Assembly: GCA_021513715.1 (NCBI GenBank)
Contig: CP084167.1
Span: 160,001 to 224,000 of the forward strand
Length of the DNA stretch: 64,000 bases
Reading direction: 5' to 3'
Source of the DNA: Candidatus Heimdallarchaeum endolithica
GTDB taxonomy: Archaea > Asgardarchaeota > Heimdallarchaeia > Heimdallarchaeales > Heimdallarchaeaceae
The position numbers and the translations under genes are program-made. Shown here piece by piece: positions 2,967-43,890 of the stretch (positions within the stretch are counted from its first letter, which is position 1; every line of letters starts with the position of its first letter). The notes beneath the pieces were generated by a model. It was not told the origin of the DNA. It saw nothing but the letters and a program-made list of their open reading frames with translations, and ran no database searches.

Positions 2967-3076
2967 AGAAAAACATTTACACTTTTTTTCTATTTTCTCT
3001 TGACTTAGACTTTAAACTCTTTTTTTGTTAAAACATCATTCTTAAATAATTAGAAATTCAAATAACCTTTGATATT

Positions 3077-3553
3077 ATGACAAATTTAAAGATTGGAGAT
3101 AAAGCAATTGATTTTTGCTTAAAAGACCAAAATGGAAAAGAACACTGCCTTAAAGACTATTTAGGAAAATGGGTAGTAGTTTATTTCTATCCTAGAGCTA
3201 ATACTCCAGGTTGTACAATTGAAGCAAAAACTTTCTCTGAAAATATTGAAGAATTCAAGAAAAAAGAAGCGATAATCTTTGGTATTAGTGATGATCCTAT
3301 AAGCAAACTTAAGAAATTTGAGGAGAAAAAAAATCTCAAAGTAATTCTACTGAGTGACGAAACACACAAAATAATTAACGCTTATGGTTGCTGGATAAAG
3401 AAAAGGATTGGTCCAAAGGAGTATTTTGGAACAGCTAGAAAAACCTTCCTCATTTCTCCAGAGGGAAAAATAGCAGAAATATGGGAAAAAGTAAAAGTAA
3501 AAGAACATTCAATAGATGTTTTATCTACAATTTTAAGTAAGAATGGTGATTAA
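3077..3553 (+). CDS. bcp: Peroxiredoxin Bcp/PrxQ
   Basis: VYFYPRANTPGCTIEA peroxidatic motif. Confidence 0.92.
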   Translation: MTNLKIGDKAIDFCLKDQNGKEHCLKDYLGKWVVVYFYPRANTPGCTIEAKTFSENIEEFKKKEAIIFGISDDPISKLKKFEEKKNLKVILLSDETHKIINAYGCWIKKRIGPKEYFGTARKTFLISPEGKIAEIWEKVKVKEHSIDVLSTILSKNGD

Positions 3554-4105
3554 ATGAATTTTTCTGAAATAGTTAAAAAAAGGAGAGCATATAGATCCTT
3601 ACTCCCTTTTGAAGTAAAGGAAGAGATGATAAGAGAACTAGCTGAACTAGCAAGTTTAGCTCCTTCTTGTTTTAATAAACAACCTTGGAGATTTATTTTT
3701 ATTTATGAGAAAGAGAATCTTGAAAAAATCTTTTCTACTTTATCAGATGCAAATGCTTGGGCAAAAAATGCTTCAATGGTAATTGCTGTTTTTTCTAAAC
3801 CAGACTTAGATTGTATAGTGAAAGGAAAAGAGTATTACCTTTTTGACACAGGAATGGCTACAGCAAATATTATTCTACGACTTACTGAAATGGGATTGGT
3901 TGCCCACCCAATTGCTGGATTCAATGAAGAAAAAGCAAAAAAAGTTTTGAATATCCCTCAAGAATACAGAATTATTACGTTGATTATAACAGGAAAACAT
4001 AATGAAAACTATGCTGATGTATTAACAGAAAAAGCTGCGATTTCTGAAAAAACTAGGCCTTCAAGAAAGAATTTCAGAGAAGTGGCTTTTCTAAACACTT
4101 TCTAA
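3554..4105 (+). CDS. Nitroreductase family protein
   Basis: RRAYR, APSCFNKQPWRF, DTGMA motifs; abuts bcp stop (TAA-ATG). Confidence 0.9.
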   Translation: MNFSEIVKKRRAYRSLLPFEVKEEMIRELAELASLAPSCFNKQPWRFIFIYEKENLEKIFSTLSDANAWAKNASMVIAVFSKPDLDCIVKGKEYYLFDTGMATANIILRLTEMGLVAHPIAGFNEEKAKKVLNIPQEYRIITLIITGKHNENYADVLTEKAAISEKTRPSRKNFREVAFLNTF

Positions 4106-37332: not shown

Positions 37333-39075
37333 CTATTTTTCTAAAACACTAGAATCTACATATCCATACTCAACCAATTTAGCTAATACTTTATGAACAG
37401 ATTCTTCTATTGTTTCTTTATCAGTTTCGCAAACAATTTCAGGATTAGTTGGAGGTTCATAAGGATCATTGACTCCAGTGAAATTTAGTATTTCACCTGC
37501 TTTTGCTTTCTTGTATAATCCTTTTACATCTCTAGATTCACATACTTCTATGGGAGCTTTCACATATACTTCCATAAAGTCTCCTATCAGTTGTCTTATC
37601 TCATCTCTTACTGCTTGATAAGGGGCGATATTAGCCATCAAAACAATAACGTTATTACGAGTTAGCATATGAGCAACAAAACCAACTCTTCTGATATTTT
37701 CATCTCTATCATGTTTACTGAAACCTAAATCTTTGGTTAGATATTGTCTTACAACATCCCCATCAAGACGTTCTACATGATATCCTCTTTTCTTTAATTC
37801 TTGAGCAAGAGCTTTAGTTATTGTTGTTTTTCCAGACCCGCTAAGTCCAGTGAATAGTAGAGTAACACCTTTCTGTTCTACTTTTACTTTACCATTATAA
37901 GCATCAGTTAAAATCATAGCTACTTCAGGACGAGTAAACTCTCTAGGAAGCATTTGTCCTTCTTTTAACATTTGTCTAACCTTTGTTCCTGAAAGATAGA
38001 CATGACTCTCTTTTCCATGAGGACAAGTCTTTTGAGTAGCCATTTGCTCACATATTTTACAATAAAAAGCATGCTCAAATTTAAATGGTTTAATCTTTAG
38101 ATCATTATCACTGAATTGATCAAAAATCTCTTGGGCTTCATAAGTACCATAATAATTACCAACACCAGCATGGTCACGACCTATAATAATATGAGAACAA
38201 CCATAGTTTTGCCTAGCTATAGCATGCATGATAGCCTCTCTTGGACCTGCATAACGCATGTTTGCTGGAAATACACCTAAAAAGAATCTGTCTTTTGGAT
38301 AATATGCATTTAGAATCACTTTGTAAGTTTCCATTCTAGTTTGAACTGGAACATCATCACTTTTTGTTGAACCAACAAGAGGATTAATAAATAAACCATC
38401 TACAGACTCTAAAGCTACTTTTTGTAGATATTCATGAGCTCTGTGTATTGGATTTCTTGTTTGGAAAGCCACAACTGTTTTCCACCCTCTTTTGGTAAAT
38501 TCAGCCCTAGTTTGTTTTGGGGTGAAACGATATTCAACAAAATCTTTATGAGGAAGATCATCGATTAACAGAATTTCTCCTCCTAGGTAATAGCTTTCTG
38601 TTTGATAAAGAGCAGCTACTCCTGGATGAGCACTATCCTCTGTTTTATAAACATTAAGTGCTTCTTTCTTTTTATTTGGATTATAAATGTCAGAAACTGT
38701 CATTAAACCCATATATACGCCATTCCACTTTAGTGTAATTTCATCTCCTTTACTTAAACTTCCAGCAAAAGAATCATCAACTGGAAGAGTTACTGGAATT
38801 GGCCAAACAACTCCATTTTTTAATCGCATTGTTTCAACAACGCTAATATAGTCTTCTTCAGTCATAAATCCAGTTAGAGGTGAATAAACCCCTGTAGCTA
38901 TGCATTCAAGATCAGCTAGTGTTCTTTCATTTAATTCTAAGACAGGTAATGTTTTTGCTTTTTCAACATAATTATATCTTTCTTCTTCGCTTATTATATG
39001 TTTGTCTATAAGTTTTCCTCCATGGGGAGGAACAAGCTTTTGAAGGTTTTTTTCTAATTCTTTATTGTCACTCAT
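37333..39075 (-). CDS. sat-cysC: Bifunctional sulfate adenylyltransferase / APS kinase (PAPS synthase)
   Basis: [16 protein letters not shown]; [22 protein letters not shown]. Confidence 0.95.
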
Positions 39076-40321: not shown

Positions 40322-40684
40322 TTGTTGGCAGAATCAGTAGACACTGAAAAAGAGATTGAAGAAGTAAAATTGATCTTGAAAAATATGGTTCAATCAGTAA
40401 TTGACTTCTGTTCAAAATCTGGAAAAATAACAGCTTCAGAAAAAAGAATTATTAAAGCAATGAAAGAAGCAACAAAAGATCTTGAAGATGATATAATTGC
40501 TTTATATAAAGAGCAAGCTGATAATATTGAGGATATGACTTTACTCGATGTAGTAAACAAAAATAGAGCTAAAATACTGAACGACATTTATAAAGCTGCT
40601 ATTACTCCTAAAAGACATCTACTATCTAAAGAAGCACAAGAAGTAATTAATATGGTAGCCAACGACTTGTTAGGGCATGGATAA
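40322..40684 (+). CDS. Hypothetical helical protein
   Basis: 120-aa ORF with AGGTG RBS upstream. Confidence 0.6.
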   Translation: MLAESVDTEKEIEEVKLILKNMVQSVIDFCSKSGKITASEKRIIKAMKEATKDLEDDIIALYKEQADNIEDMTLLDVVNKNRAKILNDIYKAAITPKRHLLSKEAQEVINMVANDLLGHG

Positions 40685-40769
40685 TAAAATTTCATTATTT
40701 ATTCTATATCTTTTATACAAGAAGTTTTCCAAAAGAGAAAATTAAAAAACCCAGTGAAATCTTTTATTT

Positions 40770-40835
40770 GTTGAGAAAATGATTAAGTTACCCCTGTCTG
40801 AACTATGATGATAATTGCATATTATGATTCTCAAC
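40770..40835 (+). ncRNA. Box C/D sRNA (snR38/SNORD1-like guide)
   Basis: Terminal stem GTTGAGAA/TTCTCAAC; C ATGATTA 40779; 12-nt guide AGTTACCCCTGT; D' CTGA 40798; C' ATGATGA 40805; 12-nt guide; D-like ATGA 40824; T-tract follows. Confidence 0.78.
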
Positions 40836-40899
40836 TTTTTCTATTTTTACACATTTTAAAAGAAAGATATTATATAGATGCAAATTAAAAAAGATTCTG

Positions 40900-43890
40900 A
40901 TGAACTATTACAGTTGTACAAACTGTAACTCAAAAATTGAGATAGAATGGGATTTCTGTGAAAATTGCAGAGCTGAAATTATTAAATGTAAAATATGTTT
41001 TACACCCTTTAACAAAGAAGATTTAGCTTATCAATGTCCTTTTTGCAGAAGTCTATTTCACACTGATCATTTAGAGCAATGGTATAAAATAAACGAATAT
41101 TGTCCACATTGTAAAAAAGTGGAAAAAATAAGCGATTTTATTAAAATCTCACTTAGTTCATTTCGTGAATATAGATTTGATTTAGACAAAGATGGAAAAA
41201 TTGACCCTTCTTTACTTACACAGATGAATTTTCAAGGAGGTTTTTGGCAATCTCAGAAGTTAATTCTTGAAAAATTTGAACAAAAGATTAGTTCTGTTGA
41301 AAAGAAGTTTTACGTAGCGTCTCCTCCAGGTTCAGGAAAAACGATTGTGGGTCTTGAAATTGCAAAAAGGATAGCAAAGAACACTCTAGTCTTGACACCT
41401 AATTTTTCTACTCAAGAACAATGGATAGATAAAATAAAATTGTTTCTTAATAAAGAATCTAATATTATTAACACAATGATAGGTGCAAATGACCCGAAAT
41501 CAAGTGCTCCGATAACAGTAATGACCTATCAACGTTTTTCAGTTTATTCTCAAGATGAAGAAATGTTAATTCATTTTGCAGAACAGATGTGGTTAAAAGA
41601 TATAAATGAAGATGATAAAGAATTTATTGAATCCTTGAAAAAAAACAATTACGAAGAATATAGCATAAGATTAAATGAATATATCAATAAAATAAGACAT
41701 AAAATAATAAAAGGAGATTTTACATTTTCTGATATAAAAATTAGAGATATTCTACATAAAAACACTCTAGAAATAATTGATACACTAAAAAACAAAGGAA
41801 TTGGACTAATAATTTTAGATGAATGCCATCATCTTACATCAATATGGGCATATATTGTAAATTACCTTATTAAGGAATTTAACAGCCCTTTCATTTTAGG
41901 ATTAACTGCAACCCCTCCAATTGATATGAATACCGAAAGTGAAGAAGTAGGAATATATGAACTACTTTTTGGAACGGTTGATATTGAAATTCCTACTCCT
42001 GCGGCTGTGAAACAAAAAAACATTGCACCTTATCAAGATTTGTTATATCTCACCTATCCCCAAGAGGATGAAATAAGAGAAATAGAAGAAGAATTCAAAC
42101 CTTTAAGAAAACTTTTTTCTTCATTTAAATATAGAGATCTTAAAGGACCTCTTGAATTTCTTAAAGAAGAATATAAAAATAATCAGTTAAACACATTAAA
42201 AAAATATAAAAACGATGATCTACTGAATAAAATAAATCAACTTTTTGAAGAACAAGAAGAAATTGATCAAGAAATTTTTACATTAAATGAATTATTTATA
42301 ATTCTCCATTCTTACTACTGGAATTATGTTAAAAAACAAGAGAACTTCAATTCTAAAAAAACCTTGGACTATTATAATAAATTAGAGAGATTTTTCGAGA
42401 AATTTGTGAATGTAGAAGATTTAATAAAAGAAAAAGAAAAAACATTTAGATTTCTTAATTCTAGTAAATCAAGACTAAATGCAGTTGTTGATATTTTGGA
42501 GCACGAATTTTTACATTTAAAAGAGAAACTGCGTTCAGTCGTAATTTATGATTTTTCTGCAGAAAATTTATCGTTGAATATTCTAGAAAAACTCATTTCA
42601 AATTCAACAACTAATCAATTAGATCCAGTTTCTATCTCATCATCGTCAATATTTACAGATAAAGATATAGCCAATCAAATACTAAAAGAAAGTGAAAGAT
42701 GGAAAGAGAATTTTAAATTTGACATCAAACTATCAATCAAAGAAACAGAAAATAATAAAATCGTTCAAATCGAAGGAAATGGACTAGATTGGAGAACAGG
42801 AATATATACTCTTCTTTTTACTTATTTGCTTGAGAAGGGGATAACAAAATGTTTGATTGGTCCAAGAAACATATTAGGAGAGGGTTGGGATTCTGTTAAA
42901 TTAAATACACTTGTAGATCTAACTTCAGTATCAGCCTACCAAACTGTTATCCAAACTAAAGGAAGAGCATATAGAGTAGACGAAACAGATTACCTAAAAA
43001 TAAGTAATATTTGGGATATAGCAGTAATTGATCCTAGTTTACCTTTTGGACTTAGCACTTTTTATAATATACAAAGAAAACATGAACACTTTTATGGATT
43101 ATCAGAAGATGGTATAATAGAAAAAGGGATAGGTCATATTTATCCCTCAATTTATGAAGATATAAGTGAGATAGCAAAAGACATCAGTAAATTTAACAAA
43201 ATTATGATAAACAAGGCATTACAAAGAGAAAAAACTTATAACCAGTGGAAAATTGGAGAAAAATATGATAATGTAGAATTATTATCTTATGACTTAAAAT
43301 TTGAAGATAGAAACTTTATCATTCCTGTTGTGAATGATGCTTATGGAGTTATACGATATAAAAATTATGGAAAAAGGTTTTCACGCAAGGGGTATATAGA
43401 TTTTGAAGAGAAACTAATCACAGACTTACTATCTAATGCTTTTCAGAGTCTTATTCTATTAAATGAATATAAAATATCTCAAGAAAAGAAAAATGAAACC
43501 TTATCCTTAATAAGTGATGAAATAAAAAATGCAACTTTTAGTCAAAGAATGGGAAATTATTATCGTTTATTGCTTCCAAGTATTAATCCAAAAGTCGAGT
43601 CTGTACTAGATACCATGCTTATGCTTCAAAATGCGAATATTGGAATTTCAATTAAAGAGTTAACTGAAAATGGAACAATAATCAAGAATAGCAACAAGAT
43701 TGAAGAAACAATGCTTAAACAGTTAATTGTTTTTGGATTTTCATTCTTAAAAACTGAAGAAATTAATCAACTTCTGGTTATTTGGAATAGAGTAGTTGCA
43801 CTTGGAGAAATAATAAAAGAAGAAATTGTTCAAGAGAAAGAAAGACATAAAAGGATCTTCAAGGTAAATAAAAAAATAATATGGATGTAG
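40900..43890 (+). CDS. Zinc ribbon + RING-finger fused SF2 (DEAH/ResIII-like) helicase
   Basis: CKIC...CPFC...HTDH...W...CPHC; SPPGSGKT, DECHH, TAT, GEGWD, QTKGRAYR. Confidence 0.85.
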   Translation: MNYYSCTNCNSKIEIEWDFCENCRAEIIKCKICFTPFNKEDLAYQCPFCRSLFHTDHLEQWYKINEYCPHCKKVEKISDFIKISLSSFREYRFDLDKDGKIDPSLLTQMNFQGGFWQSQKLILEKFEQKISSVEKKFYVASPPGSGKTIVGLEIAKRIAKNTLVLTPNFSTQEQWIDKIKLFLNKESNIINTMIGANDPKSSAPITVMTYQRFSVYSQDEEMLIHFAEQMWLKDINEDDKEFIESLKKNNYEEYSIRLNEYINKIRHKIIKGDFTFSDIKIRDILHKNTLEIIDTLKNKGIGLIILDECHHLTSIWAYIVNYLIKEFNSPFILGLTATPPIDMNTESEEVGIYELLFGTVDIEIPTPAAVKQKNIAPYQDLLYLTYPQEDEIREIEEEFKPLRKLFSSFKYRDLKGPLEFLKEEYKNNQLNTLKKYKNDDLLNKINQLFEEQEEIDQEIFTLNELFIILHSYYWNYVKKQENFNSKKTLDYYNKLERFFEKFVNVEDLIKEKEKTFRFLNSSKSRLNAVVDILEHEFLHLKEKLRSVVIYDFSAENLSLNILEKLISNSTTNQLDPVSISSSSIFTDKDIANQILKESERWKENFKFDIKLSIKETENNKIVQIEGNGLDWRTGIYTLLFTYLLEKGITKCLIGPRNILGEGWDSVKLNTLVDLTSVSAYQTVIQTKGRAYRVDETDYLKISNIWDIAVIDPSLPFGLSTFYNIQRKHEHFYGLSEDGIIEKGIGHIYPSIYEDISEIAKDISKFNKIMINKALQREKTYNQWKIGEKYDNVELLSYDLKFEDRNFIIPVVNDAYGVIRYKNYGKRFSRKGYIDFEEKLITDLLSNAFQSLILLNEYKISQEKKNETLSLISDEIKNATFSQRMGNYYRLLLPSINPKVESVLDTMLMLQNANIGISIKELTENGTIIKNSNKIEETMLKQLIVFGFSFLKTEEINQLLVIWNRVVALGEIIKEEIVQEKERHKRIFKVNKKIIWM

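Follow-up and report, generated by a model that had tools for sequence, protein, structure and literature searches.

The window analysed here is a 64,000-nt stretch of the Candidatus Heimdallarchaeum endolithica genome, which consists of one contig of 3,326,783 bases. A putative small RNA gene of the box C/D type is located in an intergenic gap of 215 nt, between an upstream forward-strand ORF ending at position 40684 and a downstream gene on the same strand (40900-43890) that encodes a 996-aa ResIII/DEAD-type helicase with an N-terminal zinc-ribbon- or RING-like region. For the upstream ORF of 120 aa no Pfam match was found. Elsewhere in the window, at 37333-39075 on the reverse strand, ATP sulfurylase and APS kinase are fused in one gene. 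The C-D'-C'-D layout with two 12-nt guides and an 8-bp terminal stem, as described in the earlier note, was found with all elements in place, including the variant D box ATGA (Table 1).

Table 1. Features of the sRNA locus (positions in the window) and the intron in the 23S rRNA target site (E. coli numbering for rRNA residues unless indicated)
Feature	Position	Strand	Remarks
Whole box C/D sRNA gene	40770-40835	+	about 66 nt including terminal stem
Terminal stem, 5' arm, 8 bp	40770-40777	+	across 14 orthologs, 99% of the cells are paired
Box C, variant ATGATTA	40779-40785	+	its sixth base, U, can form a pair with A in the variant D box
D' guide, 12 nt	40786-40797	+	bases 2-11 complementary to 23S 2443-2452, base 5 opposite G2446; nearly invariant in orthologs
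Box D' CTGA	40798-40801	+	sequence
Box C' ATGATGA	40805-40811	+	sequence
D guide, 12 nt	40812-40823	+	positions 1-11 pair with 23S helix-35 loop, position 5 faces U747 (host 23S nt 866)
Box D, variant ATGA	40824-40827	+	sequence
Terminal stem, 3' arm	40828-40835	+	pairs with 40770-40777
Candidate BRE/TATA-like promoter element	40735-40749	+	lead only; AT-rich genome; sequence retained in H. aukensis
T-rich tract, candidate terminator	40836-40848	+	lead only
Host 23S intron, relaxed bulge-helix-bulge, A2450/A2451	L001 1986-2408; genome 2131916-2132338	-	423 nt, ORF-less

Several features expected of archaeal box C/D sRNAs are present. The boxes occur in the order C, D', C', D within about 50-70 nt, the 8-bp terminal stem closes the K-turn, and the guides form 10 and 11 bp with the host 23S rRNA, the +5 base being part of a Watson-Crick pair in both cases. 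Genes for fibrillarin, Nop5 and an L7Ae-family protein are present in the host genome. The fold of the sRNA has a z-score of -2.64, and with 21 paired guide bases the sRNA ranked first among 187 intergenic stem-closed C...D candidates genome-wide; in controls with reversed or complemented rRNA at most 16-17 guide bases were paired. Two points speak against this reading, namely that the C and D boxes are both variant (the GA/AG core is retained) and that no ortholog was found in 14 of 31 genomes of the family. On balance, the locus is very probably a genuine stand-alone dual-guide archaeal box C/D sRNA, predicted to direct methylation of G2446. Two further candidate signals were discarded: the double changes in the terminal stem are produced by a register offset of one base in G011 and G037 and were discounted as covariation, and a U-A compensation between the C and D boxes, which is present here and in several orthologs, is not a general rule, since other orthologs have U opposite C.

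The host genome seems to carry just a handful of C/D RNAs. Outside the window, another stem-bearing C/D sRNA (G000:C1:2956867-2956942, + strand) has a D' guide forming 11 bp with the 530 loop of 16S rRNA (predicted target U531) and a D guide forming 7 bp near C518. The residue U531 is the site of yeast snR77 and human SNORD65. Additionally, two stem-bearing C/D-like RNAs were observed at G000:C1:3268252-3268322 and 2147873-2147936 (both + strand), one whose guides match helices 92-93 of 23S rRNA and the other, which resembles an RNA in G046 (L224), with no good rRNA match and possibly a tRNA guide.

The targets of both guides were assigned on the 23S rRNA of the host, which is encoded by a single gene of 4136 nt, its length being due to two inserts. 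In the spliced 23S rRNA, all 10 pairs of the D' guide (Table 1) are of the Watson-Crick type. The target proposed in the earlier note, the G equivalent to E. coli G2446 and yeast Gm2815, is thereby confirmed in its register on the host sequence; the complementarity proposed there holds for these 10 nt, and the complete 12-nt complement was absent from the host rRNA in an exact search. With the unspliced precursor 11 instead of 10 pairs are formed. The second guide had previously been left unassigned; it forms 11 bp (duplex energy -10.5 kcal/mol) with 23S nt 862-872 in the helix-35 loop, and nt 866, opposite its fifth base, is U747 by a published alignment. For each guide, the observed pairing run was equalled by shuffled guides in 2 of 300 trials. 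Moreover, guides and targets co-vary: G2448/A2444 in the host family is accompanied by C/U in the guide, and A2448/G2444 in Methanothermococcus and two Nanobdellota by U/C. From these pairings the sRNA most likely directs 2'-O-methylation of G2446 in the peptidyl-transferase centre, and the D guide probably directs methylation of U747 in the helix-35 loop. The latter assignment is less sure, because the D guide is A/U-rich, is exchanged in most orthologs of one genus (g5), in several of them for a C2498 guide, and has a G-U pair adjoining position 5 in two orthologs.

With a model built from 14 orthologs, the sRNA was found in 17 of the 31 genomes of the family Heimdallarchaeaceae, some of which contain two copies. 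No ortholog was found in the other 14 (incomplete MAGs) or in 16 genomes of three sister families. Among the family orthologs there is hardly any variation in stem, C box and D' guide, and the helix-35 target of the D guide is retained in four genera and part of g5. The flanking genes are shared with H. aukensis only. In G011, a decayed third copy (L228) lies at a distance of about 4 kb from an intact copy. In four g5 orthologs (L015 in G039, L013, L014 and L033) the guide for G2446 is accompanied by one for C2498. A presumed case of covariation in G010 turned out to be coding sequence, and the rarity at first suggested by a strict pattern search, in which only two Heimdallarchaeum species matched among 400 Asgard genomes, was dismissed, since the pattern was too strict and missed variant C' boxes.

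The G2446 target site is interrupted in the family. All 14 of the 23S genes covering the site contain an ORF-less insert of 335-423 nt, and A2450/A2451 is the only junction that preserves both universal A residues in all 14 introns. On the 5' side, a helix, a bulge of 3 nt and a helix of 4 bp follow one another in textbook fashion; on the side of the 3' exon the structure is loose. Compensatory changes occur in the intron stem. Two splicing endonuclease genes are present in the host genome. In ten intron-less genomes of the order, belonging to sister families, the site is uninterrupted, and nine of these read exactly as the predicted spliced product with G2448. Accordingly, the A2448G change was rejected as a product of the intron. 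A group I intron with a junction after U2449 was rejected as well, since no Rfam group I match was obtained and since with this junction A2450 or the terminal G would be disrupted in G034 and G013. In Crenarchaeota, BHB introns are known from the vicinity of the A2450/A2451 position. A eukaryotic parallel is a lichen intron at yeast position 2818, within the snR38 target (10.1101/2021.05.01.442275). The second 23S intron of the host (about 677 nt, L001 ~3055-3731, reverse strand) lies near E. coli position 1785 and carries a LAGLIDADG-like ORF with two motifs and a length of about 185 aa; the 23S gene of H. aukensis is about 710 nt shorter, and this intron is therefore probably missing there.

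The central 4-bp helix of the A2450/A2451 intron is built from G2445-G2448. Binding of the guide and formation of this splice helix are mutually exclusive and would have to take place one after the other. Because intron and downstream exon have their first two bases in common, pairing of the guide is almost equally good with precursor and product (-19.9 versus -18.8 kcal/mol). This overlap, which is seen in 14 of 14 genes, and the slightly stronger pairing with the unspliced RNA raise the alternative that the sRNA is mainly a chaperone or timing device. Paired with 2443-2452 and with the initial bases of the A2450 intron, it would steer how this intron folds or is spliced, or would bridge domains II and V; a chaperone role has been proposed for sRNAs with distant double targets (PMC4644070). 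We regard such a main function as unlikely. The same guide is present where there is no intron, the partner guide is exchangeable, and three intron-bearing genomes (G016, G017 and G034) have no detected guide. In addition, the extra pair with the precursor is formed by guide position 12, and this position is usually occupied by G or A in intron-less lineages, too (23S rRNA read in three); among 24 non-Asgard guides, 17 carry one of these two bases there. The extra pair was therefore rejected as a sign of an intron-specific action.

The preferred reading, a methylation guide for G2446, invites comparison with eukaryotic snR38/SNORD1, since yeast Gm2815 and human Gm4362 are snR38 sites. The best match of the sRNA in Rfam was snoR38 (RF00213; snR38/SNORD1/AtsnoR38Y) with 39.1 bits and an E-value of 2.9e-4, so that the relationship suggested earlier is reflected in the top match, although the score lies below the curated cut-off of 45; the best RF00213 score among 83 genomes of the class was 40.2 bits. 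The predicted target G of the sRNA is that of snR38; both RNAs use the D' position, in a register that agrees with the Rfam consensus, and they have 11 of 12 guide bases and CUGAA in common. This corroborates the earlier assignment of the site and of the guide position. The likeness in 11 of 12 bases is mostly due to the conserved rRNA, which dictates the guide: the single differing base pairs with host G2448, and the two end bases of the D' guide vary freely among homologs. Beyond boxes and guide no letters are shared with snoR38, and a non-Asgard copy scores equally high. The Heimdallarchaeum sRNA differs from snR38 by its compact size (66 nt versus about 91 model positions), its second guide, which is predicted to work, and its variant C and D boxes.

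In other archaea, predicted guides for this G are already on record. For M. maripaludis sR101, M. kandleri sR7 and I. hospitalis sR414, the target predicted by Dennis et al. 2015 (PMC4644070, Additional file 1) is position G2720 of their alignment, which we count as E. coli G2446. sR101, which is expressed in M. maripaludis (RNA-seq coverage 9835; PMC4644070), is similar in size to the Heimdallarchaeum sRNA and shares the succession of C box, one base, the same D' guide and CTGA. For A2448/G2444 the guide of sR101 has U/C, where the Heimdallarchaeum sRNA has C/U for G2448/A2444. No target is predicted for the D guide of sR101, in contrast to the predicted U747 guide, and the methanococcal target site, read in Methanothermococcus, contains no intron. 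In sR7 and sR414 the predicted G2446 guide is partnered with guides for C2510 and C2498, respectively, instead of U747, and sR414 holds the G2446 guide in the D position. The second guide of sR414, a D' guide, is letter-identical to the C2498 guide in the D position of the G039 ortholog, with the D and D' positions being swapped. The G2446 site is also matched by the D guide of Sulfolobus Sac-sR11, though position 5 is then in a G-U pair (PMC4644070, Additional file 1).

A scan of 185,579 species genomes, which was able to detect copies in the D' position only, yielded 62 matches. These comprise 21 bacterial and 6 archaeal chance-like matches, 11 of the Asgard type and 24 non-Asgard sRNAs with clean boxes. 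In direct counts the guide was present in 14 of 40 genomes from the phylum Methanococci and in 6 of the 151 from Nanobdellota, with 0 matches for the reversed-pattern control. A copy from Hydrothermarchaeota has the exact snR38 core and reaches 39.8 bits against snoR38, compared with 39.1 bits for the Heimdallarchaeum sRNA. Among the Asgard archaea, the guide occurs in 17 of 22 genomes of a Hodarchaeota-type family, and the two largest families, like most others, gave background-level matches only. The genome-by-genome survey covered Asgard archaea, Methanococci and Nanobdellota. In Hodarchaeales the guide is partnered by a C2510 guide in 9 of 9 copies read, as in sR7; no 23S sequence spanning the G2446 site was recovered there, and their match to G2446 is a prediction from the guide sequence. 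This guide pair is common to Hodarchaeales, archaeon S141 and Methanopyrus sR7 (L067, L114-L132). By sequence reading, the Nanobdellota copies combine the G2446 guide with guides for U2438 or U2479. One record titled Methanosarcinales (L071, L140; G402; 0.77 Mb) was placed with the Nanobdellota, and other titles may also be wrong (L075, titled 'Thorarchaeota', is the G070 sequence). The Heimdallarchaeum sRNA thus belongs to a patchy, archaea-wide set of G2446 guides in which the partner guide is often exchanged.

This distribution bears on the suggestion of the earlier note that the sRNA might be an Asgard ortholog of snR38, which was to be regarded as less special if the same guide proved widespread in other archaea. 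An Asgard-specific snR38/SNORD1 ortholog marking the Asgard origin of the eukaryotic snoRNA would be consistent with snoR38 as top Rfam match, with the identical D' position and register, and with the guides in 17 of 31 Heimdallarchaeaceae and 17 of 22 genomes of the Hodarchaeota-type family. We consider it highly improbable, as guides for the same G exist in Methanococci, Methanopyrus, Ignicoccus, Nanobdellota and Hydrothermarchaeota, comprising the 24 clean copies, the direct counts and the three published sRNAs given above, and as most other Asgard families are at background level. The interpretation as a C/D sRNA aimed at G2446/Gm2815 stands, and the special link between Asgard archaea and eukaryotes is given up.

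Two broader explanations of the likeness to snR38 are about evenly balanced. According to the first, whose probability falls only just short of one half, an old archaeal G2446 guide in the D' position was patchily kept and became ancestral to snR38 via the Asgard host lineage, without being unique to Asgard archaea. The D' position is used by snR38 and nearly all archaeal copies read, pairs of guides recur in distant lineages (G2446 with C2510 in Methanopyrus sR7, Hodarchaeales and archaeon S141; G2446 with C2498 in Ignicoccus sR414 and genus g5), the guide is retained in genomes poor in C/D RNAs, and snR38 is assigned to LECA (PMC3511168). Set against such deep descent are the shared letters, all of which belong to boxes or are dictated by the target, the score below the Rfam cut-off, the patchy spread, the D position of the Ignicoccus copy together with the blindness of the collection scan to copies outside the D' position, and the known convergent origin of guides (PMC4644070). 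The patchiness fits the second explanation equally well, namely that selection for methylation or for help in folding produced the same guide repeatedly, so that the likeness to snR38 reflects conserved rRNA only. Stems, spacers and partner guides differ between the lineages and the end bases of the guide vary, as expected from convergence; the recurring partner guides and the fixed D' position in distant lineages argue against it, and we hold it to be nearly an even chance. Shared descent with snR38 is possible and goes beyond what sequence can show. With a probability slightly lower still, the G2446 guides of Methanococci, Methanopyrus, Nanobdellota, Hydrothermarchaeota and Asgard archaea might constitute one old lineage that predates eukaryotes and led to snR38/SNORD1, the guide of the Heimdallarchaeaceae being in addition timed against intron splicing.

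In the literature searched, no statement of a lineage link between archaeal G2446 guides and snR38 and no mention of 'Gm2446' or of Asgard C/D guides was found. In PMC3511168 and PMC3486863 no archaeal family is firmly called homologous to a eukaryotic snoRNA by the authors; other candidate pairs are given in PMC3511168, none of them firmly accepted, and in the passages considered the pairing of G2446 guides with snR38 was not found among them. The sharing of any single snoRNA between archaea and eukaryotes is an open question (PMC3511168, PMC3486863), for which Gm2446 is a good candidate site.

If expressed, the sRNA would fold with a K-turn at C/D and a K-loop at C'/D' and bind L7Ae, Nop5 and fibrillarin. 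The resulting RNP would 2'-O-methylate G2446 in the peptidyl-transferase centre, the site of snR38/SNORD1 in eukaryotes, through the D' guide, and probably U747 in the helix-35 loop through the D guide. As the G2446 target is split by an intron, guide pairing and splicing would be sequential. The sRNA is a C/D guide of the ordinary archaeal type, its site having been predicted before in other archaea, and it adds a Heimdallarchaeum member to the broad range of archaeal guides directed at the snR38 site; its second target is newly assigned, and its G2446 target site is split by an intron. For an enrichable Asgard archaeon two rRNA modifications are hereby predicted, and the Heimdallarchaeaceae would provide a natural case of competition between a modification guide and an intron of the tRNA type for the same bases of the active centre.
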